Shown here piece by piece: positions 16,047-51,002 of a stretch of 64,000 nt of DNA. Below the pieces are notes generated by a model, which ran no database searches, was not told the origin of the DNA, and was given only the letters and a program-made list of their open reading frames with translations. The first letter of the stretch is position 1; each line of letters begins with the position of its first letter. Source of the DNA: a phage; the sequence record PZ445488.1; one strand, given 5' to 3'. The position numbers and the translations under genes were made by a program.

Positions 16047-16081
16047 ATAGGTCTATTATATCATAATATTTAGAGACCTAT
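16047..16081 (-). promoter_or_regulatory. early promoter with extended -10 (TGATATAAT) in the loop of an 8-bp palindrome (AGACCTAT/ATAGGTCT), upstream of gene 55
   Basis: Minus strand reads GATAGGTCTCTAAATATTATGATATAATAGACCTATG. Confidence 0.45.
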
Positions 16082-16097
16082 CTTAAAGCACGAGATA

Positions 16098-16367
16098 CTA
16101 TCGGAGCAAACAATAAGCCTGAAACACTTTTTCCATTAAACGTTTGAACTCATGTATATCAATATAAAGCTCAGTAAGACCGGCATTATAAAGAAAATCT
16201 AAAAAGTTCTCATGTGTTTCGTTATAGTCGCCTTCATTTAATTGAGATACATGAGTTTCCCAAAAACCAACACCTTTAACGAATGGAAAATACGTGACTT
16301 TCATGTATTCGTCAACATAAAATTCGCCCAGCTTTTCTTCAGTTATACTGATTCGAGTTAATTTCAT
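16098..16367 (-). CDS. hypothetical protein (89 aa)
   Basis: ORF track; ATG at 16367. Confidence 0.5.
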   Translation of the reverse strand: MKLTRISITEEKLGEFYVDEYMKVTYFPFVKGVGFWETHVSQLNEGDYNETHENFLDFLYNAGLTELYIDIHEFKRLMEKVFQAYCLLR

Positions 16368-16591
16368 TCTAGTTCCTTTGCTGCTTCAAGAGCAGCATCA
16401 AGCGAATCAAATTGGTCAACGAAATCAATATTCAACGCATCGTCAACCGTAGCATATAGCCACCATTGTTTAAATTCATATTCTAGAATAAATCCAGGAC
16501 CTTCGATCTGAGGAAGACCTAGACTATTTGTACCAACTTCGTAACCAGCTAGACGCAGATCATTAATCAAAGTTTCTGTTAGTACGCTCAT
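16364..16591 (-). CDS. hypothetical protein (75 aa, acidic)
   Basis: ORF track; ATG at 16591. Confidence 0.5.
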   Translation of the reverse strand: MSVLTETLINDLRLAGYEVGTNSLGLPQIEGPGFILEYEFKQWWLYATVDDALNIDFVDQFDSLDAALEAAKELE

Positions 16592-16920
16592 TTTACCGCC
16601 TTAACAATTTTCAAGTCAGCGAATTTTTTCTTACGTTGATTTTTCATACGACGGATAGTTTTTTCAGAGATTTCATGTTTCTGATAAGCTTTAGATTCAA
16701 CACCAAATGCAGCAACGTCAAATTCAGAAAGAATATATTGTACTAGAATTTCGCGAATAGAATTACGTCCAATTTTCTGGTCGTGTTTTTGCATGATTTC
16801 ATAAAGACGGAATTCCCACGCGTCAAGAACTTGAGGAGTAACAATACCACCTTTTTCTAGAAGACTAACAACTTTATCGAAAGCGAAAGAGTTCACTACG
16901 TTTTTGATTTTAGTAGACAT
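16588..16920 (-). CDS. hypothetical protein (110 aa)
   Basis: Start placed at ATG 16920 (AGAGGA RBS); the upstream ATG 16959 lies inside the promoter -10. Confidence 0.5.
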   Translation of the reverse strand: MSTKIKNVVNSFAFDKVVSLLEKGGIVTPQVLDAWEFRLYEIMQKHDQKIGRNSIREILVQYILSEFDVAAFGVESKAYQKHEISEKTIRRMKNQRKKKFADLKIVKAVK

Positions 16921-16939
16921 ATTATTTTCCTCTGTTATT

Positions 16940-16983
16940 TTATTATCCAACGAGAGCATTATACTCTGCTCTCAAGAGTTTGT
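16940..16983. repeat. 44-bp exact repeat, copy A (identical to 46351..46394)
   Basis: ttattatccaacgagagcattatactctgctctcaagagtttgt occurs identically about 29.4 kb away; contains TATAAT between inverted GAGAGC/GCTCTC. Confidence 0.85.
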
Positions 16984-16986
16984 GCG
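16958..16986 (-). promoter_or_regulatory. promoter-like element (TATAAT -10; degenerate -35 CGCACA) within repeat copy A
   Basis: Same -10 and spacer as the 46369..46397 promoter, but the -35 TTTACA is replaced. Confidence 0.3.
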
Positions 16987-17226
16987 TTATTTCGTGATAA
17001 GATAATGTAAATAGTTTGCTTGACGAACACTGATATCAACACCCATATCAAAGATACCTTTATAGAACGGGTATTTGTTTTCAGTAGAATCTAGACTAAA
17101 AGCCTTTCCGCCACAACTAACGGTAATAGCATCAGTTAAAGTGTCATATGCAAACTTAATAGTTGAGCCGTTCACTACGACTTCAAGACGTTTTTTCGAT
17201 GTAATAATGTCTAATTCTTGTTCCAT
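16987..17226 (-). CDS. hypothetical protein (79 aa)
   Basis: ORF track; ATG at 17226 with GAGGAAAA RBS. Confidence 0.5.
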   Translation of the reverse strand: MEQELDIITSKKRLEVVVNGSTIKFAYDTLTDAITVSCGGKAFSLDSTENKYPFYKGIFDMGVDISVRQANYLHYLITK

Positions 17227-17254
17227 GATATTTTCCTCATTTTAAGACGATAGG

Positions 17255-17284
17255 AAGATAACACTTCTTCCTACCATCGTAAAC
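17255..17284 (-). promoter_or_regulatory. early promoter candidate (GTTTAC, 18 bp, TATCTT) within palindrome TAGGAAGA/TCTTCCTA
   Basis: Minus strand reads GTTTACgatggtaggaagaagtgtTATCTTcctatc. Confidence 0.35.
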
Positions 17285-17286
17285 TA

Positions 17287-17487
17287 TTAACCGAACTTTT
17301 TAGCGCCTTTCCAGCCTTCGTACATAATTGCGCAAGTCAATAGCACAGCATGTTGGCATTCTTTGTATTTGTAAATCCAGAACCAGCGTAAAAAGTCTTC
17401 ATCCTCAACACCGTTGAGTTTCATATTGGCAAAGAATTCGGCACGTTCTTCACGAAGTTGCCATGACACAATATTTTCAGGATTCAT
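17287..17487 (-). CDS. hypothetical protein
   Basis: ORF track frame; ATG 17487 preferred over the GTG at 17499. Confidence 0.4.
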   Translation of the reverse strand: MNPENIVSWQLREERAEFFANMKLNGVEDEDFLRWFWIYKYKECQHAVLLTCAIMYEGWKGAKKFG

Positions 17488-17711
17488 TTTGTGTTCCACG
17501 CCCCATTTTCATCGATGAACTTAATCCAGTCATTTACAGACCATTTAGTTGTATCACCCTTTGGATTAACATTTAAAGTATATAATCCCTGCTTAAAAAG
17601 CATTCGTTTGATATTCATAATTTCCTCAACTGTAACGATAACATTCGTTAGCTTTACGTTTGGCTTCAGTATGAGAAGTATTATAATCATACTCTTCTTT
17701 ACTGTAAACAT
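17484..17711 (-). CDS. hypothetical protein (75 aa)
   Basis: ORF track; ATG at 17711. Confidence 0.45.
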   Translation of the reverse strand: MFTVKKSMIIILLILKPNVKLTNVIVTVEEIMNIKRMLFKQGLYTLNVNPKGDTTKWSVNDWIKFIDENGAWNTK

Positions 17712-18175: not shown

Positions 18176-18354
18176 GGCTTAATTTCCTTCGCAATTGAAC
18201 AGAAGATACCACGGTCACAAAGCATTTCACCAATTTCTGGATATTTGATTGAACGGTACCAAACATCCAGGCTTGAAACTCTGGTTATCTGTACTGCATT
18301 ACCGTTGACAGAATAATACTGGTCAACCTTAATTTCTTTATCTTCAATTGTCAT
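18172..18354 (-). CDS. hypothetical protein (60 aa)
   Basis: ORF track frame; ATG 18354 with AGAGGAAAATAAA RBS. Confidence 0.4.
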   Translation of the reverse strand: MTIEDKEIKVDQYYSVNGNAVQITRVSSLDVWYRSIKYPEIGEMLCDRGIFCSIAKEIKP

Positions 18355-18382
18355 TTTATTTTCCTCTATAGTAGATGGTTTA

Positions 18383-18411
18383 ATCTTAACACATCTATTG
18401 AGGATGTAAAC
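18383..18411 (-). promoter_or_regulatory. early promoter candidate (GTTTAC, 17 bp, TAAGAT)
   Basis: Minus strand reads GTTTACatcctcaatagatgtgtTAAGAT, upstream of the 18354 start. Confidence 0.35.
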
Positions 18412-22213: not shown

Positions 22214-22218
22214 GATAA

Positions 22219-22250
22219 ACCCTTACCTTAAATAGATAAGGGTATTTATA
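22219..22250 (-). promoter_or_regulatory. gene 49 late promoter (TATAAATA) abutting a hairpin (ACCCUUA...UAAGGGU) that sequesters the gene 49 Shine-Dalgarno
   Basis: Minus strand reads TATAAATAcccttatctatttaaggtaagggtttatcATG; the 3' arm contains AAGGG 5 nt before the AUG. Confidence 0.55.
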
Positions 22251-22252
22251 AT

Positions 22253-23889: not shown

Positions 23890-24194
23890 TATAATATTCT
23901 CTCAAATTTGTGGAAGCATTTACGGCATTTCAATTTCAAGTTATCAGTGGTCCAGTTAACCAGTTGGACTTGGATAGTTCCACATTCCGGGCATGGATGT
24001 TTTGCTGCTGATTTGGCAGCATTTTCACGTCGTTCAACCATTTTCATTATTTCGTTCCATGCCGGAGGAACGAACTCTTCTTCACCGTGGATTTTATCTC
24101 GCTGAACAAATTCAATCTTTGAACTATCGTCAATAAACTTAACCAAGCAGTGGTTAGTGTTCATATCAATATCCTCTAAAAGACGTAGTTTCAT
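23889..24194 (-). CDS. zinc-ribbon protein (101 aa)
   Basis: ORF track; CPECG...CRKCF pair near the C-terminus. Confidence 0.5.
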   Translation of the reverse strand: MKLRLLEDIDMNTNHCLVKFIDDSSKIEFVQRDKIHGEEEFVPPAWNEIMKMVERRENAAKSAAKHPCPECGTIQVQLVNWTTDNLKLKCRKCFHKFERIL

Positions 24195-25144
24195 TATAAC
24201 ACCTCAATGGCATTTCGTAAACCATCCGCTTTTGCATTCAGAGCTTTTAATGATTTAGTTTGTTCTGCAATCTGGGCTTCGACTTCTTTCAGACGTGATT
24301 TGAGGTATTCACGTTCTTCGCTCAGGTTATCAACCTTTTCTGCTTTAGGTTCTTTAATAGGCTTAGACTTAAACACATTAGGATTCTTCAGCTTAATTCG
24401 GGTGCGAGAACTATATAACATTGAACCGTTATCTTCGGATTCGTCGAACGTTTCAACAACATCCATAGTCTCTAACAATGTAATAAGTTTATAAGACAAT
24501 GAACGAACGGTTTTGTTATGCTTATTAATTTCTTCAGCTTTCATGGTACCGAGATTACGTGAGTAGTAATAAGGAACCTGGATATCAATTGATAATGATG
24601 CGTTACCATTACCGGTTGGTTTGAATACTGCAGTAACCCAATCTTTAACATGAACTTTATTTGTACGGCCATCACCGCCAGTGAATAATTTACGAGAATG
24701 TTTAAAAAGCATATTCACTTGGTTATTGAATTCACAAGCAAATTTATCAGCAAATTTAGTTTCAGGAATGGTAGATAACCAATCAGCCAAATGAGTCTTT
24801 TTAACATCATTAACAATAGTGAATTCAACCAAATCGGTTTTAGATGTCACAGATTTAATAAAGCTCGGCTTCATAAAGTTTTTAATGTTATCGCGAGCTA
24901 CAGTAGAAGATAATAAACGAGAACGTTTGAACCATTGAAGCAGTGTCCCTAATGAATGAGAATACGCATTCTGAGTATCTTTACAGATATGATTTTCTTG
25001 ACCTGTGTATGTACCAAAATCGCGAAGAATACCACTTACTACATCTCGGTGTGGAACATCAAATCCTAGTGCACCAACAGCGCGCTTGGCATGAACGTTA
25101 GCGATAAGACCGGCAAAGTATTCAATGTAATGTGAACGTGTCAT
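24194..25144 (-). CDS. hypothetical protein (316 aa) with C-terminal coiled coil
   Basis: ORF track; ATG at 25144; first of three similarly sized genes, each preceded by a palindromic promoter. Confidence 0.55.
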   Translation of the reverse strand: MTRSHYIEYFAGLIANVHAKRAVGALGFDVPHRDVVSGILRDFGTYTGQENHICKDTQNAYSHSLGTLLQWFKRSRLLSSTVARDNIKNFMKPSFIKSVTSKTDLVEFTIVNDVKKTHLADWLSTIPETKFADKFACEFNNQVNMLFKHSRKLFTGGDGRTNKVHVKDWVTAVFKPTGNGNASLSIDIQVPYYYSRNLGTMKAEEINKHNKTVRSLSYKLITLLETMDVVETFDESEDNGSMLYSSRTRIKLKNPNVFKSKPIKEPKAEKVDNLSEEREYLKSRLKEVEAQIAEQTKSLKALNAKADGLRNAIEVL

Positions 25145-25173
25145 AATATTTTCCTCTCGTTAAGATAGATTCA

Positions 25174-25202
25174 TTATACTCCAACCATCCTTGGTTGTAA
25201 AC
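25174..25202 (-). promoter_or_regulatory. early promoter (GTTTAC, 17 bp, TATAAT) with palindromic spacer CAACCAAGGATGGTTG
   Basis: Minus strand reads GTTTACaaccaaggatggttggagTATAAT; 26 bp shared with the copy at 26193..26221. Confidence 0.5.
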
Positions 25203-25206
25203 CGTT

Positions 25207-26166
25207 TTATGATTTTAATGCATTCATTGCATTAAAAAGTTTAGAATACTGCAACTGGAGATTCGTTACAACACTTTGAGCATCACGAAGCTTAGCTTGT
25301 GCTTTGTCAAGTTCAACGGACAGTTGGTCCATAGTGGCCTTGATTTGATTGTAATGGTAATCTTCGACCGGAAGAAGGTCATTAGAAACATTTAGTTTTA
25401 CTGCAGACAGTTTGCACACATTTGGCAAACCTTTAAACATTGATTTACCCGAAGTAGAATATGAACCTAGAACTTCAGCATTACCAATTGGGGTTGCAGT
25501 AATTGACGCTTCAAATGTTGCATTTTCCTTTTTAAGATTTTGATAGTATTCAGAGTCTTTGTGCCACCATGGCGCAGGAACCTTTTTACCAATAGATACA
25601 CGAGCCTGGATAGCGATATGGCCCTTATTCTTGATAGGGTCGATAATATTAAGCTCACGAGAATAAATTGCTTTAATCTGGTGGATATTATCACCTAAAA
25701 CTTCCAACGCTTGGTGGAATACACGAGCAACGTTATCATTCTTAGGTTTATACGTAAGAGTGAACTCGTTCTCACTGATAACCATGATTTCCAACTTATC
25801 GTAAGTATATTTCAAATGTTTCATGTTAATTGCTTGAGGACGAATACGAGAAGCAATGGCCATCAGATTGTTAAGGTTATTCCGGAACTGCTTAGCGAAA
25901 TATTGTCCTTCACCGCCAATACAAAAATTACGAAGTTTCTGTTTGGCTAATAAACGGCTGAACTCACCATTTTTAATGAACTCTTTAACGGGCGTGTTAG
26001 TAACACATTCAAATTGAGTAAACATACGAGAAGTAATCCCATAATACGAACAGACTTCCTCAATCTCTTCAGGAGTTTTTACAGGCATACGGATAGGATT
26101 AGGTCCTGGAGTATATGCGTTCGAGGTAAATTCTTTGATAAGTTCTCTACGTGTAATAAAAGCCAT
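25207..26166 (-). CDS. hypothetical protein (319 aa) with C-terminal coiled coil
   Basis: ORF track; ATG at 26166. Confidence 0.55.
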   Translation of the reverse strand: MAFITRRELIKEFTSNAYTPGPNPIRMPVKTPEEIEEVCSYYGITSRMFTQFECVTNTPVKEFIKNGEFSRLLAKQKLRNFCIGGEGQYFAKQFRNNLNNLMAIASRIRPQAINMKHLKYTYDKLEIMVISENEFTLTYKPKNDNVARVFHQALEVLGDNIHQIKAIYSRELNIIDPIKNKGHIAIQARVSIGKKVPAPWWHKDSEYYQNLKKENATFEASITATPIGNAEVLGSYSTSGKSMFKGLPNVCKLSAVKLNVSNDLLPVEDYHYNQIKATMDQLSVELDKAQAKLRDAQSVVTNLQLQYSKLFNAMNALKS

Positions 26167-26192
26167 TTTATATTCCTCATGTTGAAAAATTT

Positions 26193-26221
26193 ATTATACT
26201 CCAACCATCCTTGGTTGTACA
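26193..26221 (-). promoter_or_regulatory. early promoter (TGTACA, 17 bp, TATAAT), paralog of 25174..25202
   Basis: Identical 26-bp core attatactccaaccatccttggttgta. Confidence 0.45.
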
Positions 26222-27217
26222 TCATTCCTTAAGAAGTTTTACTACTTGAATAAGATTAGCTCGTTCTGTTTTATTTTTACCATTTAAGCCTGCTAATCGT
26301 GAGATTTCATCGTCAGTCTGTTGAATAGTTACATTAAGTTCGTTAATCAAAGCTTCAAAGTATTTGATTTGCTCAGCATGTTTTGATTCAAATTTCTGAA
26401 CCGGAATAACGTCTTGGTTCAGTTCATCAATAAGGTCTTTAAGAGCATCTTCTTGGTTGATATCATATTCAACTTCTTTTATTTCTTCAACGAGCTCGTC
26501 TTTATATCTAACGTCTTTTAGTCCTGGAGCTGGTCCTGAAATCTCTTCTTTAAGAGTACAAACATACCCAATACGGTATCCAATGCCGTCTCGCTTGATA
26601 TCAACTTCGTCGATAAATCCACAATGTTTAAGACCAGAGCCGATTATGTCAAAATATCCTTGACGTCGTCCTTCAAACGTTACACGAACTACTAAGACAG
26701 TTTTACCACCAACCTTTTGAAGCTCACATTTATAAAAGTCTGTTGAACCTGAATAACGTGGATGAGTTTTAAAGTTCATCTGACGATCTAGGCCCATTTG
26801 TAAACGTGCTGTTACGGCCATAAAACGTGTTTGGTTCTCGTTAAGATGAGCAACAATCCATTTCAAAGGCATTTTACACTGTTCACGACCGAACAAATCA
26901 GTACGTCCTAGATTACGCAGGATATTGTTAGAGTTAATCATCGACAGAACGTTAAGTTTATTCAGCGCGCTGAAGATTCCATCAGCCATTGATTTTCCAT
27001 AACCTTTACACGCTTTAATAAGTGCTCGCGGCAGATTAGTATAGATTTCAGACGGCATATGAAAATCAAATTTACTAGTCAGTAATTGATGAACTTGGAT
27101 AGCAATTTGCTCATAATTAAGTGCTCTGCGATCGTTATGGTCTTTAAACCACACTTTAATCTGTGAAGCACATAAACCGTTAATTTCATGTTTTACCGCA
27201 TCAGATGTAATACTCAT
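26222..27217 (-). CDS. hypothetical protein (331 aa) with C-terminal coiled coil
   Basis: ORF track; ATG at 27217; preceded at 27253..27276 by a degenerate copy of the CCAAGGA(T/C)GG promoter element with a shortened spacer. Confidence 0.55.
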   Translation of the reverse strand: MSITSDAVKHEINGLCASQIKVWFKDHNDRRALNYEQIAIQVHQLLTSKFDFHMPSEIYTNLPRALIKACKGYGKSMADGIFSALNKLNVLSMINSNNILRNLGRTDLFGREQCKMPLKWIVAHLNENQTRFMAVTARLQMGLDRQMNFKTHPRYSGSTDFYKCELQKVGGKTVLVVRVTFEGRRQGYFDIIGSGLKHCGFIDEVDIKRDGIGYRIGYVCTLKEEISGPAPGLKDVRYKDELVEEIKEVEYDINQEDALKDLIDELNQDVIPVQKFESKHAEQIKYFEALINELNVTIQQTDDEISRLAGLNGKNKTERANLIQVVKLLKE

Positions 27218-27279
27218 AACTATTTCCTCAGATTGAATTGGAACTCAAAACCATTATAACCCGTCCTTGGGTAAAGCGT

Positions 27280-27807
27280 TTATGCGTGAACCGTCTTTAA
27301 ACGTTCTTCAAATTTCCGAAGAGTACTAATACGTTCTGCTTTCTGTTTTGTATAGTTTGCAATACGTTCTGAAGTGAGAGCGTATCGTTCGTTTACTGTT
27401 TCTTTCATGAAGTCAGGGATTTCACGAGAAGCTTTAATTTCATCAAACTTGTCGAGTACTGCCTGGTCTTCAGCGATTAAATTTTCATACATCTCGATAT
27501 CTTTCTTGATAAACTCGATATCTTCCTGAGTTACTTTGGATAAACGAGATGCTTTATCCTTTTTGTACTGCTCGTTAGTTTCACGAGACCAGAATAATGT
27601 ACGTTTTTTGTTAGTGTTTTTGTAGACTTCCACAATTCCAACTGAATCGATGATAACAATCCAATTCCAGCGAGATTTGAAAATCTGACCTCCATCCACG
27701 GTAATCTCGTTACCATAAGCAACGTCATTAAAGAACTTGCTCTGTGCTTCAGATTTAAATTTACCGTCGTTATAATTTACCAGGTTGAAAATATCTTTAG
27801 CGTTCAT
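27280..27807 (-). CDS. hypothetical protein (175 aa)
   Basis: ORF track; ATG at 27807 with GGAGGTAAAAC RBS. Confidence 0.55.
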   Translation of the reverse strand: MNAKDIFNLVNYNDGKFKSEAQSKFFNDVAYGNEITVDGGQIFKSRWNWIVIIDSVGIVEVYKNTNKKRTLFWSRETNEQYKKDKASRLSKVTQEDIEFIKKDIEMYENLIAEDQAVLDKFDEIKASREIPDFMKETVNERYALTSERIANYTKQKAERISTLRKFEERLKTVHA

Positions 27808-27834
27808 GTTTTACCTCCAGTAGTTGATAGGTCT

Positions 27835-27863
27835 ATAATAACATAACCATAGACCTTGTAAAC
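27835..27863 (-). promoter_or_regulatory. early promoter (GTTTAC, 17 bp, TATTAT) inside palindrome AGGTCTAT/ATAGACCT
   Basis: Minus strand reads GTTTACaaggtctatggttatgtTATTATagacctatc. Confidence 0.5.
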
Positions 27864-28290: not shown

Positions 28291-29292
28291 TTATTTCAGT
28301 AAAGTTACTTCAGAGATTTCCTCCCAACCATCTTTATCAGTTGAAATAAAATCTGCTACATAAAGAGCCGTACGTAATGATACATTGCGAAGACGAGATA
28401 CGTTAGCCTTCATCCAGGACAATGCTTTGTACGTTTCAGCATCAGTCAAGCCACGTTTCTGCATCATGTCAGTAGATAATATTACATCTTCAACTCGAAC
28501 CATAATCTCTTCATTAGAGTGTACTCCAAGGTCCAAATACACTGAACGAGATACTAAAGCTTGAAGGTGTGGAGCAAGTTTCGAACCGCGTTCTAACTCT
28601 TTATCAATATCAACGTTTGTAATGAAAACGATAGTACCTTCAAACTCAAATTCTTTATCGATACCCTTATCCTCGAGATAAGATGACGCAGTGCTCCAAC
28701 AAACTTTGCGTTTATCTCCGGTATCTAATGCTGCTTTAAGAAGGTTCAGGATGTCCATATCTGAGAATACGTCAACGTCATCGATTAAGAGAACGCTGTC
28801 TTCATCACGGTTGAGCCAAAGTTGTTCGTAAAGGCCAATACCGGAGATTTTACCATTAATGCTTTTGTATTTGATGAAACCATTATCATTAGCATTATTA
28901 AGTGCTTTATCCAGAGAATACGTCTTACCAATACCAGCTGCACCTGAAATAATGAGTGAACGAATTTTGCCATCAATAATGCCATTCGTCATCATGTTCA
29001 TTACTTTAAAGCGTTTGTTGATACGAGTTTTCATATCTTCAGTGCTTTCAACAACTGCAACTGGTGACGTCTCAACTCCTTCCATTACGATGTCTGATTT
29101 GAAGACCCATACTCCACGTTCAGAACCATCAATCATAACGAAAATTTTACCGTCACCTAAGTGGGAACATTCAGGATTAAGCTTTGCCGGGAACCATGTC
29201 TTTGTGGCAACATAAGAACCAGAGATTTCGTTATTACGATAGATACCTTTTTTGATTTGAACGTTGAACATTTTATTCTCCAATTTACTCAT
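28291..29292 (-). CDS. P-loop NTPase (AAA-like ATPase)
   Basis: 333 aa; Walker A GAAGIGKT and Walker B LLIDDVD; ATG at 29292. Confidence 0.6.
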   Translation of the reverse strand: MSKLENKMFNVQIKKGIYRNNEISGSYVATKTWFPAKLNPECSHLGDGKIFVMIDGSERGVWVFKSDIVMEGVETSPVAVVESTEDMKTRINKRFKVMNMMTNGIIDGKIRSLIISGAAGIGKTYSLDKALNNANDNGFIKYKSINGKISGIGLYEQLWLNRDEDSVLLIDDVDVFSDMDILNLLKAALDTGDKRKVCWSTASSYLEDKGIDKEFEFEGTIVFITNVDIDKELERGSKLAPHLQALVSRSVYLDLGVHSNEEIMVRVEDVILSTDMMQKRGLTDAETYKALSWMKANVSRLRNVSLRTALYVADFISTDKDGWEEISEVTLLK

Positions 29293-29309
29293 TTCGTTTC
29301 GATAGGTCT

Positions 29310-29338
29310 ATAGTATCATATCCTAAAAGCATGTACAC
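29310..29338 (-). promoter_or_regulatory. early promoter (GTGTAC, 17 bp, TACTAT) followed by GACCTATC palindrome arm
   Basis: Minus strand reads GTGTACatgcttttaggatatgaTACTATagacctatc. Confidence 0.45.
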
Positions 29339-29367
29339 TACTTTTTAAAAATATTTTAACCCCCTAA

Positions 29368-38193: not shown

Positions 38194-38523
38194 TTATACT
38201 CTAGGCTTTTGAGCTTGTTTGGTATTGGATTCCCATGCGGCTTTGGTAATTTTGTTAGCGGCATAGCCAAAGGCATTAGATAGAACACCTTTAGAGTTGA
38301 ATACATCCAATCCAATAAGTACACCTGCTGTGTTAAATTTAGGAGCAAAGTATGCATTAGTTTTAGAAAGAGCTTTTTTCAATTCAGGGTCTTGAACCAA
38401 GCCATCAAAAACGCCTTTACTATTTACTTTATATGTTACTTTGGGATTTTTACCTTCTTCGATAGCAGCTTTCTGTTCAGCAGATAATGTAACTTCAGTG
38501 ATAAATTCTTGATACATTTTCAT
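38194..38523 (-). CDS. internal-protein-like capsid-targeted protein (ipII/ipIII class)
   Basis: N-terminus MKMYQEFITE matches the T4 internal-protein capsid-targeting leader MKTYQEFIAE; adjacent to denV as in T4. Confidence 0.55.
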   Translation of the reverse strand: MKMYQEFITEVTLSAEQKAAIEEGKNPKVTYKVNSKGVFDGLVQDPELKKALSKTNAYFAPKFNTAGVLIGLDVFNSKGVLSNAFGYAANKITKAAWESNTKQAQKPRV

Positions 38524-38529
38524 TTTTCC

Positions 38530-38943
38530 TTAGTAAATTGATTTACCATAGTATTTGTACCAAGTCAGTCGTTGAGCAATTTTTTCATCTAAGCGTGCTT
38601 GACTTATCGCAATGGACGCTTCGGAAGGGACATAATTATTACGAAATTCGGCAGGGATGTCGGAAATATCCTGGACTGTCGTGTCCTTGATTTTGAAACC
38701 ACGTTTCAAGCATTCAGCGATTAGCTCGATTTGTCGTAAACGTAAAAATTCAAGTTTGTCGTAAAAGAATGTTACGTGACCTGTGCCTAAGATAAATGTT
38801 GGAGAGATTTTAAAATCCTTTACACGTTTACCGTTTTGAACATGTTTACGGACTGCACCAAATACGCGTGGTAATTCACGATACTCAGCCATAAGATGTT
38901 GGTCGGTCAGTTCAGAAACAAGTGTTAAATTGATACGGGTCAT
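38530..38943 (-). CDS. denV: endonuclease V (pyrimidine-dimer DNA glycosylase) DenV
   Basis: [35 protein letters not shown]... matches T4 DenV (138 aa) from ATG 38943; the track start 38955 is TTG. Confidence 0.9.
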
Positions 38944-38970
38944 AATTTCCTCCAAGTAGTTGATGAATGT

Positions 38971-39000
38971 ATAGTATCAAAGTCCTTGGAGGAAGTAAAC
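38971..39000 (-). promoter_or_regulatory. early promoter (GTTTAC, 18 bp, TACTAT) inside palindrome CCTCCAAG/CTTGGAGG that contains the denV RBS
   Basis: Minus strand reads GTTTACttcctccaaggactttgaTACTATacattcatcaactacttggaggaaattATG. Confidence 0.5.
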
Positions 39001-39001: not shown

Positions 39002-39283
39002 CTATTTTTCTGAAGCGCCTGAAATATATTTTTCAAGACGTTGTTTCATTAACGAGCCGTTCTTAGCGATTTCTTCCGGTTTATCGCACATACGCAACAG
39101 TGCTTCAAGCTTAGCGATATCGCTGGTACGTTCAAATTTGCGAGTATCTATCTTACTGGCAAGTTCAGAAATACGTGCTAATAGACTTTCGGCTTCAACC
39201 AAAGCTGCACCTAGCTTAGTTGCAAATGTGTCAGTAGCTTCGTTAAGAATAGATTCTGATAAAAATTCACTATATGTTTTCAT
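39002..39283 (-). CDS. internal-protein-like capsid-targeted protein
   Basis: From ATG 39283: [20 protein letters not shown]...; the ATG overlaps the lysozyme stop (ATGA). Confidence 0.55.
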
Positions 39284-39768: not shown

Positions 39769-39770
39769 AA

Positions 39771-39794
39771 TACCTCCTACGTTTATAGGAGGTA
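39771..39794 (-). promoter_or_regulatory. RBS-sequestering hairpin upstream of lysozyme e (UACCUCCUA-UAAACG-UAGGAGGUA)
   Basis: 9-bp perfect inverted repeat; the 3' arm on the mRNA contains AGGAGG 5 nt before the AUG; classic T4 gene e architecture. Confidence 0.55.
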
Positions 39795-39802
39795 TTTATT
39801 AC

Positions 39803-41662: not shown

Positions 41663-41968
41663 TTATTTTCCTCGACATTCTTTAATGAAATTTTCTAGAT
41701 TGGTAGATTCAATAGCTTTTTTACGAGCTTCTGCGTGTTCTTCTTCAGACAATTTACATTTATAATTGACCCAGACGTTATGGTCGAAACTAGTCGTGGC
41801 ATATAATAACAATGCTCCAACGAATAGCAAAAACGGCGATAAGAATACAAAACCAGGAACACCATCCATACTGTAAGCCTTTTGTAATACTGCAACAGAA
41901 AGAGCTGCGTAAAAAAGTGATACAAATATTGTTAAAAGACCAATTCGGTTGGTTTCGCCTAATTTCAT
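41663..41968 (-). CDS. membrane protein (101 aa)
   Basis: ORF track; ATG at 41968 with GAGGAGAA RBS. Confidence 0.5.
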   Translation of the reverse strand: MKLGETNRIGLLTIFVSLFYAALSVAVLQKAYSMDGVPGFVFLSPFLLFVGALLLYATTSFDHNVWVNYKCKLSEEEHAEARKKAIESTNLENFIKECRGK

Positions 41969-41997
41969 AATATTCTCCTCATGTTTTAATAGGACTA

Positions 41998-42026
41998 CTA
42001 TAACATAGTCCTATCAGTTTGTACAC
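41998..42026 (-). promoter_or_regulatory. early promoter (GTGTAC, 17 bp, TTATAG) within palindrome ATAGGACTA/TAGTCCTAT
   Basis: Minus strand reads GTGTACaaactgataggactatgTTATAGtagtcctat. Confidence 0.45.
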
Positions 42027-42227
42027 TTATTTTGACATTTCTTCGATGTCACGACGATACCCATCACGAACTTCACGAAGAGCTTCAAGGCCACACATAG
42101 GCTCGATACCAGTAATGTGAACTTGATTAATCTGATACTCTACATCTTCTAACTGAGCGAAAACATAACGACGTTCTGCTGCACAACCAGGTTTAGCTTT
42201 ACCGAAACGTTTATTCAAAGTAGTCAT
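42027..42227 (-). CDS. hypothetical protein (66 aa)
   Basis: ORF track frame from ATG 42227 (GGAG RBS). Confidence 0.45.
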   Translation of the reverse strand: MTTLNKRFGKAKPGCAAERRYVFAQLEDVEYQINQVHITGIEPMCGLEALREVRDGYRRDIEEMSK

Positions 42228-42265
42228 TTTTATATCTCCATTCACTCATTTGTTTTGATAGGTCT

Positions 42266-42295
42266 ATAGTATCAACAACTACAGACCTTGTAAAC
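42266..42295 (-). promoter_or_regulatory. early promoter (GTTTAC, 18 bp, TACTAT) + GACCTATC arm
   Basis: Minus strand reads GTTTACaaggtctgtagttgttgaTACTATagacctatc. Confidence 0.5.
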
Positions 42296-43292: not shown

Positions 43293-43532
43293 TTAAATTT
43301 CGCGACATGCGATATTATATTCATCCCAGAGGTCGTCATGTGAAGCCTCTACCAATGGAACGATTGTGCCGTTTATGTCTTCATTATAAGGGCAAATTGT
43401 ACAGTGCGCATCTTCGAATCGGATGTCTTTGTGTTCAGATTTTTTATAACGCATATCGAATATCTTTGCAAACTTTTCACGAGTAATAGTTTTAGCAACT
43501 ACTTCGGTTCCGATACTTTCGTAATAAATCAT
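43293..43532 (-). CDS. hypothetical Cys-containing protein
   Basis: ORF track frame from ATG 43532 (GGAG 7 nt upstream); an in-frame ATG at 43544 lacks an RBS. Confidence 0.45.
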   Translation of the reverse strand: MIYYESIGTEVVAKTITREKFAKIFDMRYKKSEHKDIRFEDAHCTICPYNEDINGTIVPLVEASHDDLWDEYNIACREI

Positions 43533-43561
43533 TGTGGACTCCATTTGTTTTGATAGGACTA

Positions 43562-43590
43562 CTATAACATAGCCCTATCTTGTTGTAAAC
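43562..43590 (-). promoter_or_regulatory. early promoter (GTTTAC, 17 bp, TTATAG) within GATAGG-CTA palindrome
   Basis: Minus strand reads GTTTACaacaagatagggctatgTTATAGtagtcctatc. Confidence 0.45.
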
Positions 43591-44083: not shown

Positions 44084-44389
44084 TTAGCACAACGCAGAAG
44101 ACGAAACCCAAGCACCTTCAGTAATAACGTATCCATTACCTTCACGCTTAACATCGCCGCCATTATTTTCAATTTCATCTTTCATCCACTGGGATACGAT
44201 TTCACCCTTAGGATAATAAGTACGACCGCTACCATAATCACCTACAGAAAATGATACGGCATATTGGTCTGCGATCTTTGTTGCTTCTTCTTCGATACGT
44301 TCAGCTTGATTCAGAAGTTTATAAATTGCATCTGAAGCGGATTTGGCATCATTAAACTCTGGTACTTTAATTTCAATAATCTTACTCAT
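44084..44389 (-). CDS. small protein, tandem paralog (C-terminus WVSSSALC)
   Basis: ORF track. Confidence 0.45.
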   Translation of the reverse strand: MSKIIEIKVPEFNDAKSASDAIYKLLNQAERIEEEATKIADQYAVSFSVGDYGSGRTYYPKGEIVSQWMKDEIENNGGDVKREGNGYVITEGAWVSSSALC

Positions 44390-44745
44390 TTTCTACATTC
44401 CTTAATAAAGTTTTCGATTGTTTCATTTTCACGTCTAGCTAGGAGTTCATTATAACTAATCATTTGAGAAGCGTAAACCTTTTTATTTTTCTTGTTGTGG
44501 TTTATAAAATCGTAGTAAAAATAGACTACAGTAAAAAATGATGCGATGGATGCAAAGGCTTGGGTATACCGTAAGTCCTGCCATTGGTCTGTGAATCCAC
44601 CAGTGTTCCCTATAAATCCTAACACAACGCCGTCAATAAGAAATCCAACTAATCCAAAGGCAAATCCCATGCCAATACTCATAATAAAAATTAGAATGTT
44701 CTCACCAAGAGAAGGCCATACGGTTAAGAGTTGAGGCTTTTGCAT
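44386..44745 (-). CDS. membrane protein (119 aa)
   Basis: ORF track; hydrophobic core. Confidence 0.45.
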   Translation of the reverse strand: MQKPQLLTVWPSLGENILIFIMSIGMGFAFGLVGFLIDGVVLGFIGNTGGFTDQWQDLRYTQAFASIASFFTVVYFYYDFINHNKKNKKVYASQMISYNELLARRENETIENFIKECRK

Positions 44746-45733: not shown

Positions 45734-46327
45734 TTATTTCAAAGAGTTAATATATTCTTGTACATCAGCAGAAGTGGTTTCGACACCGGTTGGAGTGCCA
45801 TTGAACGTTTCAACACGAGTCAGAGTGTCTTCGATATCAACCTTGGTCAGTGCAGCGATTTCAATTACATCATCAGCCGTAGAGATACCAAGGGCATTAG
45901 CTGCTCGAGTTTCACGAATGTATTCGAGTTTGATTGCCAGGTTCTGACGAGCATCGTCAAGTTCAACCACCTTACGAGCAATTTCAATTCGCATAGCGGC
46001 ATACCCGTCAGCTTTTGTATTAAGTTGTTCGGCAGTTCGACGATACAGAAGACCAAGCTTAGCATGCATAGTAACATCTTGTCCTTCAGCCAGGAGCTTA
46101 CGAATTTCACGTTCCTTAGAAGCGGCTTGCTTGTTCTTTTCATTAACAAGTTCGCGAATACGTTTTTCTTCGTTAATAGATTTAACAGAAGCCGTTTTTA
46201 GTTCTTTGATTTGGGTAATCAACTTATCTGCAGCTGCGTTATACTGTTCTTCGACAGTCAGATTTTTAGCCATAACAGTACCCAGTTTAGTGCGGATGAA
46301 TTCAACAAGTTTCTTCAGTGTGTTCAT
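45734..46327 (-). CDS. coiled-coil protein (PspA/IM30-like pattern, tentative)
   Basis: ORF track frame from ATG 46327 (AAAGG RBS); largely heptad-like, Ala/Lys/Glu-rich. Confidence 0.5.
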
Positions 46328-46350
46328 ATTATTACCTTTCAATTGGTGGT

Positions 46351-46394
46351 TTATTATCCAACGAGAGCATTATACTCTGCTCTCAAGAGTTTGT
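46351..46394. repeat. 44-bp exact repeat, copy B (identical to 16940..16983)
   Basis: See copy A. Confidence 0.85.
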
Positions 46395-46397
46395 AAA
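46369..46397 (-). promoter_or_regulatory. early promoter (TTTACA, 17 bp, TATAAT) with the -10 between inverted GAGAGC/GCTCTC
   Basis: Minus strand reads TTTACAaactcttgagagcagagTATAATgctctcgttgg. Confidence 0.5.
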
Positions 46398-46625
46398 TTA
46401 TTTTTTAATCAAATTAACATAAAACTTGGCGTCTTCCGGGTGCATTCCTTCGCAGTATTCTTCAACCATGAACTTCTTAACAGCTTCATAAGGACCACTC
46501 AGATTAAGCTCAGTTGTCCAGAACTTGGAATCTTGTACTGAATCGATACGAACTTCAGGGTGACGGTTGCGAATAACTTCTTCTGTGTATTCATAATCAA
46601 CGACATCAATACTAACTTTAGCCAT
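46398..46625 (-). CDS. hypothetical protein (75 aa)
   Basis: ORF track; ATG 46625 with AGAGGAGAAAC RBS. Confidence 0.45.
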   Translation of the reverse strand: MAKVSIDVVDYEYTEEVIRNRHPEVRIDSVQDSKFWTTELNLSGPYEAVKKFMVEEYCEGMHPEDAKFYVNLIKK

Positions 46626-46654
46626 TTTGTTTCTCCTCTTGATTTGATAGGTCT

Positions 46655-46683
46655 ATAGTAACACCGTCCATGGTGTTTGTACA
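46655..46683 (-). promoter_or_regulatory. early promoter (TGTACA, 17 bp, TACTAT) + GACCTATC arm
   Basis: Minus strand reads TGTACAaacaccatggacggtgtTACTATagacctatc. Confidence 0.45.
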
Positions 46684-47187
46684 TCATTTATTTTTAATTT
46701 TGCAAATTTTTCCAGCTTCGATACATGCAGCATAGATGATGCTCTGGGCAATTTTATTGCTAGTAGACCTTGCAATCACACTAAGAACAATTTCTTTTTC
46801 TTCACCACCACAACCCCAGGACCTTTGCTCATGAGTACCTTTAACTACGGCTGAAACTTCAACAGAACGTCCGCCATCAGAAGTTTTAACATCTACAACC
46901 CAATCGCCATCTTTCTCTTCAACCTGTGGTTTATCCCAAGAAATACTAATATATGATTCACTGTCAATAGAAGTCGCCGGGTTTTTCTTTACTGTAAGGC
47001 CTTCACTTTCCAGCCATTCAATAGTATTTGCGCATAAATCAGAAGAACACCTCATCGGAAACCGGCAAGATTTTTCACCTTTAGCTGCAGTGTTATACAT
47101 CTTTTCTAAAATACGCTTTTGCACGTTTTTAAAAATAGTTTCAGCAGATTCTTCAGATTTTTTATTCAGTTCAGTGTAAAGACTCAT
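46684..47187 (-). CDS. hypothetical protein (167 aa)
   Basis: ORF track frame from ATG 47187 (AGAGGAAAAT RBS); the track start 47376 would read through the promoter and terminator. Confidence 0.5.
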   Translation of the reverse strand: MSLYTELNKKSEESAETIFKNVQKRILEKMYNTAAKGEKSCRFPMRCSSDLCANTIEWLESEGLTVKKNPATSIDSESYISISWDKPQVEEKDGDWVVDVKTSDGGRSVEVSAVVKGTHEQRSWGCGGEEKEIVLSVIARSTSNKIAQSIIYAACIEAGKICKIKNK

Positions 47188-47215
47188 AATATTTTCCTCT
47201 GTGGTTGATAAATCT

Positions 47216-47244
47216 ATAGTATCACATCTAGGGAAGAAGTAAAC
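47216..47244 (-). promoter_or_regulatory. early promoter (GTTTAC, 17 bp, TACTAT)
   Basis: Minus strand reads GTTTACttcttccctagatgtgaTACTATagatttatc. Confidence 0.5.
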
Positions 47245-47275
47245 AACTTTTTCAGTAAGTTGTAGACCCCCTAAT

Positions 47276-47291
47276 GGGGACCGAAGTCCCC
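47276..47291 (-). terminator. UUCG-tetraloop hairpin GGGGAC-UUCG-GUCCCC (terminator or stability element)
   Basis: 3' of the 47297..47923 gene; paralogous to the hairpin at 29368..29385. Confidence 0.4.
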
Positions 47292-47296
47292 ATTCT

Positions 47297-47923: not shown

Positions 47924-47958
47924 TGATGGTCCTTAGAAAGTAGGTTTATTGTTTACTA

Positions 47959-47966
47959 TATTTATA
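47959..47966 (-). promoter_or_regulatory. late promoter motif TATAAATA (minus strand)
   Basis: Exact octamer directly after the terminator and 36 nt upstream of the 47923 ATG. Confidence 0.45.
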
Positions 47967-47967
47967 C

Positions 47968-47995
47968 AAAAAAGCCCCAACCTTTCGGAAGGGGC
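47968..47995 (-). terminator. rho-independent terminator (GCCCC-UUCCGAAAGGUU-GGGGC + U7)
   Basis: GC stem followed on the minus strand by TTTTTTTG; closes the tRNA / small-RNA region. Confidence 0.6.
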
Positions 47996-48038
47996 TATAT
48001 ACCTTGTCGGGGTTTCCACCTACTAGGTAAGTGTTTGT

Positions 48039-48130
48039 ACGAAACGCCGGGATTCGAACCCGGTTATTAAGCAGTTGACGCTACTCAATATTTTTAAAAG
48101 GCCATATCTCTACCATATCCGAACGTCCCG
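48039..48130 (-). ncRNA. tRNA-like element (canonical T-arm and acceptor-like ends; cloverleaf not resolved)
   Basis: Minus strand has CCGGG-TTCGAAT-CCCGG followed by CGTTTCG, which can pair with an upstream CGGGACG, but no consistent D or anticodon arm could be folded by eye. Confidence 0.3.
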
Positions 48131-48298
48131 TCAAAAACGCTACTCGGCTTACGGCAAAGATATTTCCTCGAATCGATAATTCTGTGCGCCGTTTCTGCTG
48201 TGATGTAAGGGGATATTAACGAATCATAAAGATTTATTAAGACCAGTCCTTACTCAGGGAACATCAGTCCGACGACTTGCCGGTAGCGACCCGGCTTC

Positions 48299-49411: not shown

Positions 49412-49415
49412 TTAA

Positions 49416-49706
49416 TCACCGTACCATATTAATGTAATTATATTCAATGCAACGTAATTTCAAAGGATTCTTGAAAATATCATATTCAAGAGGGCCTTTT
49501 TCTGTTTCAATAAAGAAATCAAAGTTAACTGTGTTAAATTTATCATCTTCACAGAGTAATTTAACCTGTGAAGACGAACGGTCAATGTAAACCTTTTCAA
49601 CTTCAAAATATGTTAAAATGCCATAATCATCGACTAGTGCTTTAGCTGCACGTTGATCGCTTTCGTATCCATTCTCGACAGATTTTACTTTAGCATAAAG
49701 AATCAT
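49416..49706 (-). CDS. hypothetical protein (96 aa)
   Basis: ORF track. Confidence 0.45.
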   Translation of the reverse strand: MILYAKVKSVENGYESDQRAAKALVDDYGILTYFEVEKVYIDRSSSQVKLLCEDDKFNTVNFDFFIETEKGPLEYDIFKNPLKLRCIEYNYINMVR

Positions 49707-50083
49707 GAGTGTTCCACCACTTCAAAGGTATGAGCATCAACAATATGATACCAGTCAAAATTTTCTTCTGCGTTTTTATAAATTTCGCGAAGAGCTTCAA
49801 CAGTTTTTCCTGTAGCAACAAGGTCGTCAATACCACCAAGAGGATAACAGTCATAACCAGCAAACAGAAGGAAATTAATAGTTTCTGTAGGTTCTGGATG
49901 CAAAACACCATTATCATCTACCACTTCAAAGAAAGTGTAAGAAGGAGTACAAGTTTTAATCCAGGCCCATGCTTGAGCTGCTGAATCAAACGGATTACGG
50001 AATAAACGACAATCCGGGTCTTTAGAAGGATTTGCTTCAAAATCCGCATATATGTGATATTTCATTTTACTCACCTTTTGCAA
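49703..50083 (-). CDS. hypothetical protein (126 aa)
   Basis: ORF track. Confidence 0.5.
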   Translation of the reverse strand: MQKVSKMKYHIYADFEANPSKDPDCRLFRNPFDSAAQAWAWIKTCTPSYTFFEVVDDNGVLHPEPTETINFLLFAGYDCYPLGGIDDLVATGKTVEALREIYKNAEENFDWYHIVDAHTFEVVEHS

Positions 50084-50273
50084 TTTTATCCATAACGATA
50101 GCGATTAAGCCGATTAGAAATGCTACTACCAATGAGATAGAGTTTTCAGTTGTTGTCAGTAGTCCACAAATGAATCCTACAAACATCGAAAAACTAAAAG
50201 CCATTGAAGCAATTACTACAGCAACATTACGAATCAGTTCAGCGCGTTTCATTTTATTTCTCCATTTACTCAT
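50067..50273 (-). CDS. small membrane protein (68 aa)
   Basis: ORF track; two hydrophobic segments; ATG 50273 with GGAG RBS. Confidence 0.45.
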   Translation of the reverse strand: MSKWRNKMKRAELIRNVAVVIASMAFSFSMFVGFICGLLTTTENSISLVVAFLIGLIAIVMDKIAKGE

Positions 50274-50289
50274 TTGATTTGATAGGACT

Positions 50290-50316
50290 ACTATAACATA
50301 GTCCTATCATGTAAAC
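50290..50316 (-). promoter_or_regulatory. promoter-like element (GTTTAC, short 14-15-bp spacer, TATAGT) in palindrome GATAGGACTA/TAGTCCTATC
   Basis: Same element family as 50618..50647, but the spacer is about 3 bp shorter; probably weak or inactive. Confidence 0.3.
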
Positions 50317-50318
50317 TA

Positions 50319-50582
50319 TTAAATACCAGCTTCGCGTTTAACATAATCGACGTAAGCTTGGATAGCTTTCTTGCTGGTAATTTTTACCTGGCCTCGTCCG
50401 TTGCCTTCTTTAGAGTTTTTCTTAACAACTACATTACCATCTTTAACACCCCATACATGGACATAAGTACCGATGTTTCGGTCGTAGAACATTGCATGGT
50501 CGTTGTTGTAAGAGAATGATTCGTAGTTCTCTGACAGAGTAGAAGATTGAGATTCAGCGATAAATTCTTTATAGGTTTTCAT
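50319..50582 (-). CDS. internal-protein-like capsid-targeted protein (ipI class by position)
   Basis: 87 aa; N-terminus MKTYKEFIAE is a near-exact match to the T4 internal-protein leader; next to 57B as T4 ipI is. Confidence 0.55.
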   Translation of the reverse strand: MKTYKEFIAESQSSTLSENYESFSYNNDHAMFYDRNIGTYVHVWGVKDGNVVVKKNSKEGNGRGQVKITSKKAIQAYVDYVKREAGI

Positions 50583-50617
50583 TTGTTTTTCCGTTTGGTT
50601 GTTGATTTGATAGGACT

Positions 50618-50647
50618 ACTATAACATAGTCCTATCAGCATGTAAAC
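50618..50647 (-). promoter_or_regulatory. early promoter (GTTTAC, 18 bp, TATAGT) in palindrome GATAGGACTA/TAGTCCTATC
   Basis: Minus strand reads GTTTACatgctgataggactatgtTATAGTagtcctatc. Confidence 0.45.
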
Positions 50648-50650
50648 TAC

Positions 50651-50938
50651 TTACAGAAGAGTTTTTGCAATAATTTTAAGCTGAGCTACAGAAATATGCT
50701 TAGCTTTAAACAGTGCGGTCTCTTCGGCCGGAGAGATAACAACAGTAGCGCCATCTTTCTTAGCAGACCATCCGTCCCCTAAGTAAACAGTACCTTTTAC
50801 TTCTTCACCATCAACCAGACTAATCATCGGTTTACCCTCACGTCCTTTATTTGCTTTAATAACTTCGGAAGTAAGGGTTGCTTCGGTCAGAGTAGAAACG
50901 TTAGCAACAGGTGATATAAATTCTTTATAGGTTTTCAT
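50651..50938 (-). CDS. internal-protein-like capsid-targeted protein (second tandem copy)
   Basis: 95 aa; N-terminus MKTYKEFISP. Confidence 0.55.
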   Translation of the reverse strand: MKTYKEFISPVANVSTLTEATLTSEVIKANKGREGKPMISLVDGEEVKGTVYLGDGWSAKKDGATVVISPAEETALFKAKHISVAQLKIIAKTLL

Positions 50939-50972
50939 TTTATTTCCTTGAGGTTGTTTATTTGATAGGATG

Positions 50973-51002
50973 ATAGTATCACACCATCATCCTTATGTAA
51001 AC
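50973..51002 (-). promoter_or_regulatory. early promoter (GTTTAC, 18 bp, TACTAT) in palindrome AGGATGAT/ATCATCCT
   Basis: Minus strand reads GTTTACataaggatgatggtgtgaTACTATcatcctatc. Confidence 0.5.

Follow-up and report, generated by a model that had tools for sequence, protein, structure and literature searches.

Predicted early promoters with embedded, selected dyads in the early gene region of a T4-type phage

The early gene region of the phage sequence record PZ445488.1 raises the question why many of its predicted early promoters are embedded in inverted repeats, and whether these repeats matter in the DNA, in the RNA or not at all. The window analyzed, i.e., the whole stretch of 64,000 nt, was 95-97% identical to Mosigvirus genomes (RB69-like T4-type phages) such as that of Shigella phage phi25-307. 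Its part from 16 to 53 kb is the minus-strand early and accessory gene region, with the order gene 55, nrdH/G/D, gene 49, nrdC, tk, vs, regB and denV, and further with internal-protein (IP) genes, e and tRNAs, up to gene 57/1 (gene names were taken from the T4 map). Within this region (16047-51002), an earlier note had proposed at least 20 early promoters upstream of minus-strand genes, with inverted repeats around the -10 hexamer or the spacer. In our judgment, these sites are probably the standard early-gene expression cassettes of T-even phages, which carry a selected dyad, fold specifically in read-through RNA and serve as recombination sites.

The motif GTTTAC-N16-19-TANNNT was found 21 times in the window, compared to 4.09 ± 2.09 times in dinucleotide shuffles (0 of 100 shuffles reached 21). 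This five-fold enrichment exceeded the background, and 19 of the 21 matches were minus-strand sites in the interval from 17.2 to 51.0 kb. When one mismatch was allowed in the -35 hexamer, the GTGTAC sites 42026 and 29338 and the ATTTAC site 46398 were gained. Inspection of every minus-strand intergenic gap added the TGTACA sites 46683 and 26221 and the short-spacer copy 50316. The total of about 20 minus-strand sites agreed with the number proposed, each site filling a 58-80-nt intergenic gap directly 5' of a Shine-Dalgarno sequence (SD) and ATG. The downstream open reading frames (ORFs) mostly encode hypothetical proteins. A dyad between spacer and downstream sequence with a score of at least 7 was present at 13-14 of the about 20 intergenic sites, which bears out the proposed inverted repeats. 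The four repeats quoted in the earlier note were all recovered in place: GATAGGACTA/TAGTCCTATC at 50647, 50316 and 42026, AGGTCTAT/ATAGACCT at 27863, CCTCTAGTTG/CAACTAGAGG at 36108 and CCTCCAAG/CTTGGAGG at 39000. The dyad was absent at the intragenic promoter-like sites 24222, 22502 and 19853 and at sites 44478, 47244, 29338 and 25202; sites 25202, 26221 and 46683 have a short hairpin within the spacer only. An Rfam search of the window returned two tRNAs only at gathering score and no family overlapping the cassettes.

The cassettes share a common layout. An upstream stop codon abuts or overlaps the -35 region (TAGTTTAC, TAATTTAC) and is followed by GTTTAC, a 17-18-bp spacer, a TGn-extended -10, the conserved start region CCTATCAA, the leader, a GGAG-type SD and ATG. 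In the consensus, the -40s region is A-rich, TG precedes the -10 and CCTATCAA follows it. In most cassettes, the leader from the predicted transcription start (+1) to ATG is 21-22 nt long and unstructured. The spacer and the discriminator/leader are the sole promoter segments free to vary, and minimum-free-energy folds of the window cassettes gave stems of 8-16 bp. Two classes were distinguished. In class A, the spacer contains the 5' arm, and the 3' arm includes the last part of the -10 as well as the discriminator and ends at -3 to +8 of the predicted +1. The resulting hairpin of 8-16 bp has a loop of usually 8 nt that holds most of the -10 (e.g., TGATAGGACTA/TAGTCCTATCA, AGGTCTAT/ATAGACCT, TAGGAAGA/TCTTCCTA and GAGAGCA/TGCTCTC). 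In class B, an anti-SD 5' arm directly follows the -35 within the spacer, the 3' arm is the SD of the gene, and the loops comprise 15-30 nt. In the window, class B is found at denV (39000), regB (36108; 14 bp), 32478 and 18411. Thus, the claim that the downstream arm holds the gene's SD in several cassettes was correct for these four.

Selection for pairing was assessed with several controls. Summed over 21 sites, the longest complement of a spacer to its own downstream 70 nt was 145, compared to 107.5 ± 5.6 with permuted partners, and none of 20,000 permutations reached 145 (p < 5e-5). Addition of the regB loci from 16 viral contigs (RegB identity from 97% to 40%), phi25-307 and T4 yielded 133 distinct cassettes. 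The segment from -35 to ATG of 126 non-redundant cassettes from six lineages folded at -12.5 kcal/mol, compared to -8.35 kcal/mol with chimeric spacers (Wilcoxon p = 1.3e-9). A MAFFT alignment of the regB cassettes was unusable for pair counting, as the arms slide between lineages and the columns are out of register. For this reason, arms were detected in each sequence separately, and 102 cassettes of spacer length 18 were aligned ungapped on a fixed axis without selection for a hairpin. The fixed helix of columns 11-20 with 31-40 had a covariation score of 0.278, compared to 0.180 ± 0.012 in shuffles (0 of 500 reached it). It scored better than every register slid by ±1-3, and all 10 pairs changed on both sides. 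Thus, spacer and downstream sequence are selected to be complementary in about 60% of cassettes, and the controls agreed that pairing exceeds both chance and what the shared consensus would give. The mismatches in 47 distinct stems were G.T (20), A.C (4) and A.A (2). Since neutral transitions are expected to give G.T and A.C equally, the excess of G.T points to the sense strand, which is suggestive, but not decisive, of an RNA-level feature.

How the pairing was kept became apparent from a comparison of lineages. The arms covaried at regB and denV. In the regB cassette, spacer/SD pairing was kept in five lineages, while the parts of the arms outside the SD changed. The arms are CTAGTTG/CAACTAG in Mosigvirus. 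Tequatrovirus, T4 included, has CTTGACTG/CAGTTAAG with a G.U pair, and two further lineages have CTTTATG/CATAAAG and TGTAAG/CTTACA, respectively. The fifth combines inner arms GGGCCAT/ATGGCCC with outer arms TCCTT/AAGGA. Only the most distant regB locus (L018) lacked SD pairing, and there an intrinsic terminator lies directly upstream. For the orthologues of denV and of the gene at 32029, pairing was likewise kept with different arm sequences, and a given gene can have a cassette of class A or of class B depending on the lineage. In T4, the regB and denV cassettes are of class B and those of ipII and ipIII of class A; since T4 has both classes, the feature is general to T-even phages and not special to the window.

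The dyads were unevenly distributed with respect to terminators. A dyad was present in 3 of 26 cassettes with an intrinsic terminator at most 120 nt upstream, compared to 63 of 105 without one (p = 6.5e-6). When each orthologous gene was counted only once per lineage, the numbers were 2 of 18 and 38 of 64 (p = 3.4e-4). Embedded hairpins and terminators therefore look like alternative solutions to one problem, and this problem must concern RNA arriving from upstream. The hairpins are not canonical intrinsic terminators themselves: a U-tract (at least five T in the 9 nt after the stem) followed a single one of the 33 class A stems and none of the 14 class B stems, and no cassette hairpin was flagged in intrinsic-terminator scans. 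The suggestion that read-through transcripts might terminate at the cassettes hence failed as regards canonical termination, while a role on read-through transcripts was supported by the exclusion of terminators. In class A, the hairpin would replace an intergenic terminator-type hairpin and may either act as an attenuator or shield the upstream message at its 3' end.

If the dyads act on RNA, the origin of the transcript would decide whether they form. RNA made by polymerases from upstream would contain both arms and fold. A locally started transcript lacks the 5' arm because of the promoter geometry, as had been proposed; starting at or after the 3' arm, it would stay open. Local leaders were predicted to fold at about -1 to -2 kcal/mol. 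In class B (n = 14), the folding-derived probability that the SD is unpaired rose from 0.14 in read-through RNA to 0.73 in local RNA. In class A, whose hairpins do not touch the SD, it was 0.56 and 0.67, respectively, and indirect masking of the SD by class A was rejected on these values. Masking of the ribosome-binding site (RBS) by read-through folding, as put forward in the earlier note, was therefore supported by folding for class B and not for class A. At class B cassettes, the anti-SD arm would yield a read-through mRNA with a masked RBS, which would also be the RegB cleavage site, so that translation would chiefly use transcripts of the gene's own early promoter. In sequence, the leaders are similar to the RegB target GGAGAAUAAAA. 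RegB needs GGAG in single-stranded form with an A-rich tail, and secondary structure inhibits it (PMC1702504); masked read-through RNA is thus predicted to resist RegB. The upstream stop codon lies a median of 9.5 nt from the 5' arm in class B and 13 nt in class A, so that terminating ribosomes could open the stems. Such a ribosome, 7-10 nt upstream, would provide an alternative route to translation in class B.

The proposal that cassettes mediate gene shuffling was examined by aligning the window to four close relatives. In the early region, this gave 32 internal breakpoints of synteny, of which five fell inside cassettes, compared to 1.5 expected (p = 0.015), and seven within 30 nt, i.e., a modest enrichment. 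At two junctions the crossover lay inside a cassette, in support of the proposal. A 72-aa ORF (42027-42245) together with one cassette is present in the window and absent from phi25-307 and L004, and the join of this 42295/42026 junction lies at the two -35 hexamers. The 5' and 3' halves of the cassette at 29338 match two different phi25-307 cassettes, which flank an extra small gene in that phage; the crossover is within TATAGACCTATC, which both have in common. Near-identical repeats that flank single small genes would let the cassettes serve as homologous-recombination sites at which such genes are inserted, deleted or swapped. The hypervariable junction 38493-38538 in the ipII/ipIII region, with an extra 1.7 kb in phi25-307 and 0.9 kb in L003, is not at an early-promoter cassette.

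Promoter/stem-loop elements at the IP loci of T-even phages were reportedly described by Repoila in 1994, as summarised by Arbiol in 2010. In the promoter-early stem-loop elements (PeSLs) of RB49 and phi1, the stem-loop is most commonly located between -35 and -10 or overlaps the -10. Recombination between PeSLs was shown, a terminator or attenuator role was proposed, and one PeSL stem-loop lowered lacZ expression like a strong terminator (Arbiol 2010, PMC2839356). For T-even phages, the same study noted analogous elements on T4 early promoters, with weaker AT-rich stems, at the IP loci, and PeSLs were later extended to T4/PST and KVP40/nt-1 (Comeau 2014, PMC4122927). For RB69, 57 early promoters with C-rich positions -3 to -1 were predicted and stems were not mentioned (Nolan 2006, PMC1524935). 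The analogy to PeSLs drawn in the earlier note was sustained by the position of the stem-loop and by the AT-rich T-even counterparts. Like PeSLs, the cassettes are dispersed intergenic repeats with an AT-rich upstream region, a predicted early-type promoter, a stable stem-loop, SD and ATG; they are concentrated among small accessory genes and occur at indel or replacement junctions between close relatives. RB49 PeSLs have near-consensus TTGACA and G4/C4 stems, whereas the cassettes have GTTTAC and AT-rich stems. In the T4/PST PeSLs of 2014, the stem-loop lies just upstream of the promoter, whereas here and in T4 it often spans the -10 or extends to the SD. The PeSL description does not include SD masking (the word "translation" occurs 0 times in the paper of 2010), and RB69-type phages are not mentioned in that paper. 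With the IP-locus elements, the cassettes share T4 early promoters, weaker AT-rich stem-loops and a position flanking polymorphic IP genes: the genes preceded or flanked by cassettes 51002, 50647 and 50316 have the IP leader MKTYKEFI, and T4 ipII and ipIII have the same hairpins. Unlike those elements, as far as Arbiol's summary allows this comparison, the cassettes span the early region from 17 to 51 kb, including regB and denV.

Relief of SD sequestration by an internal promoter is well known from T4 (e, soc, 49 and I-TevI), where this promoter is always a late one (Uzan and Miller 2010, PMC3014915). There, too, long transcripts fold over the SD or AUG, and a promoter within or downstream of the 5' arm gives rise to a transcript without that arm, which is translated. 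By folding, an SD paired in transcripts of upstream origin and free in those of proximal origin was found only in class B (0.14 vs 0.73). The late promoters (TATAAATA) of the T4 genes delay late-acting proteins, whereas class B has sigma-70-type early promoters with the anti-SD in the spacer. Its logic would restrict or couple early expression and not delay it, making it an analogous mechanism and not a member of the late-promoter type. The window also has SD-sequestering hairpins on the minus strand 5' of gene e (39769-39802; ATACCTCCTA...TAGGAGGTAT) and 5' of gene 49 (22214-22252; ACCCTTA...TAAGGGT), both with TATAAATA/ATAAATA motifs that resemble late promoters. The version with early promoters was not found described in the literature covered, which did not extend to older key papers on T4-type phages, and a literature search for maps of transcription starts or 3' ends in T4-type phages gave nothing usable. 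The basic element has been known since 1994 and 2010, and the advance is incremental, with Mosigvirus as an added member. Added here are the selection statistics, the two-class anatomy with a conserved masking of the SD of regB and denV, the lack of U-tracts and the finding that hairpins and terminators exclude each other.

Motif enrichment, self-complementarity, covariation, terminator exclusion and junctions are observed, and more than one function might account for them. The stem-loops might be terminators or attenuators of upstream RNA polymerase, the function proposed for PeSLs, for which the lacZ effect of an RB49/phi1 stem-loop speaks (Arbiol 2010, PMC2839356) and with which the exclusion of terminators fits as two ways of stopping read-through. 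This is rather unlikely in view of the scarcity of U-tracts (1/33 and 0/14) with A/C-rich tails instead, the negative terminator scan, AT-rich stems unlike the G4/C4 stems of RB49 and class B loops of 15-30 nt. Termination without a U-tract, by a sigma-dependent pause at the -10 together with the hairpin, would be purely speculative. Somewhat doubtful is also that class A hairpins are barriers to 3' exonucleases, which would stabilize the upstream cistron after RegB or RNase E has cut the next leader. Their position 4-24 nt past the upstream stop codon and immediately 5' of leaders with RegB-type GGAG(A-rich) sites would suit such a barrier, and terminator exclusion would be expected equally because terminator hairpins also protect 3' ends; however, class B, in which the SD itself is paired, and the switch of the same gene between class A and class B across lineages would be left unexplained. 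T4 is a classical system for quasi-palindrome mutation, and the cassettes are recombining repeats, so that the dyads might be functionless by-products of cassette duplication and quasi-palindrome template-switch repair. Neutrality is nevertheless very improbable, since orthologous cassettes of lineages with 57-77% RegB identity keep the pairing through different sequences, dyads are depleted exactly where a terminator is present, and wobble pairs are tolerated while A.C mismatches are not. Similarly hard to credit are palindromes acting in the DNA, either as operators through which a dimeric phage protein shuts off early promoters or as cruciforms affecting promoter melting or recruiting recombination nucleases. 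The dyads do overlap the -10, the mechanism of T4 early-promoter shut-off is reported as not understood, and a recombination protein binding the stem-loop was speculated upon (Arbiol 2010, PMC2839356). Yet the arm sequences differ completely between cassettes and lineages with complementarity kept, indicating a structure and not a sequence-specific site, and the G.T over A.C ratio of 20:4 (11:4 outside promoter positions) favors one strand. Class B arms lie 15-30 nt apart and end in the SD, the exclusion with RNA terminators has no rationale at the DNA level, and pairing of the T at -7 of the -10 in the stem would oppose sigma-70 binding. On the grounds of varying arms with kept pairing, favored wobble and excluded RNA terminators, operators and cruciforms were rejected.

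For the view of the cassettes as early-gene expression units with a selected, read-through-specific dyad, several points weigh on the other side. About 40% of cassettes have no dyad, and cassettes of related phages are non-independent, which collapsing reduces and does not remove. The G.T to A.C ratio is only 11:4 outside the conserved TGn and -10 positions, and class A hairpins lack U-tracts (with one exception in 33) and leave the SD accessible in read-through RNA. Class B may be a translational coupling device rather than an absolute block, and 25 of 32 breakpoints lie more than 30 nt from any cassette. Promoter activity is assigned by homology to T4 early promoters, and all functions at the RNA level are inferred. 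A more specific version, which we advance tentatively and hold to be possible, is that the spacer anti-SD is a conserved "transcript-origin gate" at regB, denV and other genes, and that hairpins and terminators are interchangeable insulators. A gated gene would be translatable and RegB-cleavable only on mRNA from its own promoter, or when coupled to a ribosome terminating upstream. Insulation would make the output of each early gene independent of upstream transcription, so that single genes could be shuffled as autonomous modules.

The individual cassettes, all on the minus strand, begin with those at the IP-like genes. The class A cassette 50936-51002, 5' of an IP-like gene with the leader MKTYKEFI, has its -35 GTTTAC at 50997-51002, its -10 TACTAT at 50973-50978 and the arms AGGATGATGGT (50983-50993) and ACTATCATCCT (50967-50977). 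Class A cassette 50580-50647, 5' of a second IP-like gene, pairs TGATAGGACTA (50627-50637) with TAGTCCTATCA (50608-50618) and has its -10 TATAGT (50618-50623) in the loop and at the stem edge. At 50250-50316, only 15 nt separate GTTTAC (50311-50316) from TATAGT, and a perfect 11-bp hairpin is formed by 50299-50309 and 50280-50290. Here, the promoter spacing is probably broken, and the stem has been kept even where the promoter looks impaired. On the minus strand, ORFs with the capsid-targeting leader of internal proteins (MKTYKEFI or MKTYSEFL) were found at 50651-50938, 50319-50582 and 39002-39283. Of these three, the first two are enclosed by cassettes of near-identical sequence, in a stretch replaced by other sequence in phi25-307. 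In the minus-strand interval 47924-48298, a 375-nt non-coding gap beside tRNA-Arg and tRNA-Met has a terminal terminator and a T-arm like that of a tRNA (GGGTTCGAATCCCGG). Searches of this gap with ARAGORN and Rfam were negative, and it may correspond to the T4 stable RNAs C/D.

Further downstream, the early promoter cassette 47185-47244 has no dyad and is preceded by a GC-rich terminator-type hairpin (47273-47294). Cassette 46623-46684 is of the TGTACA type, with its -10 TACTAT at 46655-46660 and the spacer hairpin ACACC (46672-46676)/GGTGT (46661-46665). Class A cassette 46325-46398, with the -35 ATTTAC, has GAGAGCA (46378-46384) and TGCTCTC (46363-46369) around TATAAT. A truncated cassette remnant, AAACTCTTGAGAGCAGAGTATAATG, at 16960-16986 (minus strand) is identical to the spacer and -10 of this cassette; it has no -35, the ATG of the gene overlaps TATAAT, and it resembles the "half PeSL" of Comeau 2014. 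The early promoter-like site 44387-44478 is without a dyad and borders on an indel of 250 bp in the comparison with locus L004. In class A cassette 43530-43590, GATAGGGCTA (43570-43579) pairs with TAGTCCTATC (43552-43561) including one G.U pair. The one-gene indel relative to phi25-307 is bounded upstream by class A cassette 42225-42295, with AGGTCTGTAGT (42278-42288) and ACTATAGACCT (42260-42270), and downstream by class A cassette 41966-42026, with the -35 GTGTAC, ATAGGACTA (42006-42014) and TAGTCCTAT (41989-41997).

Class B cassette 38941-39000 of denV (endonuclease V) pairs the anti-SD TTCCTCCAAG (38985-38994) with the SD-containing CTTGGAGGAA (38947-38956). In that of regB (36049-36108), TTCTCCTCTAGTTG (36089-36102) and CAACTAGAGGAGAA (36058-36071) form 14 bp including the SD. 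Class B cassette 32420-32478, with TTCTCCTC (32465-32472) and GAGGAGAA (32427-32434), is preceded by an intrinsic terminator (AGCCCC...GGGGCTTTTT) in the gap 32479-32523, and a weaker class B cassette at 18352-18411 pairs TCCTCAATAG (18395-18404) with CTATAGAGGA (18362-18371). In class A cassette 31969-32029, a TAG stop codon overlaps the -35, and TTGGTAGGATTA and TAGTCCTACCAA pair within 32009-32024 and 31985-32000, with one U.G pair. The hybrid cassette 29269-29338, with the -35 GTGTAC, has no dyad and an upstream terminator at 29358-29385. Class A cassette 27805-27863 has AGGTCTAT at 27849-27856 and ATAGACCT at 27829-27836; by folding, outer pairing reduced its SD accessibility to 0.23 in read-through RNA, compared to 0.58 in local RNA. 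At 25142-26222, two paralogous cassettes with -35 hexamers at 26217-26222 and 25197-25202 precede paralogous genes of about 320 aa, and each (26221 and 25202) has a short spacer hairpin CAACCA/TGGTTG. Three tandem paralogous genes of 316-331 aa lie at 24194-27217 (minus strand). Two of them are preceded by related cassettes sharing ACAACCAAGGATGGTTGGAGTATAAT, and a third gap, 27218-27279, contains a degenerate cassette copy with a 12-nt spacer. Class A cassette 17224-17284 has TAGGAAGA (17266-17273) and TCTTCCTA (17251-17258) around the -10 TATCTT. Finally, the gap 16026-16097, 5' of gene 55, has the 8-bp inverted repeat ATAGGTCT/AGACCTAT around TATAAT and a MotA-box-like TGCTTTA in place of GTTTAC, and may be a middle-promoter counterpart (PmSL-like).

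Taken together, a gap of 60 nt is a dense overlay of signals, i.e., promoter, leader, RBS, conditional RNA structure and recombination site. For annotation, the rule follows that an early promoter without an upstream terminator likely carries an embedded dyad, which could help to predict early genes expressed only from their own promoter. Insulation, if true, would explain why the spacers of regB and denV are complementary to their own SD across lineages, and why the small accessory genes of T-even phages behave as autonomous, swappable units.

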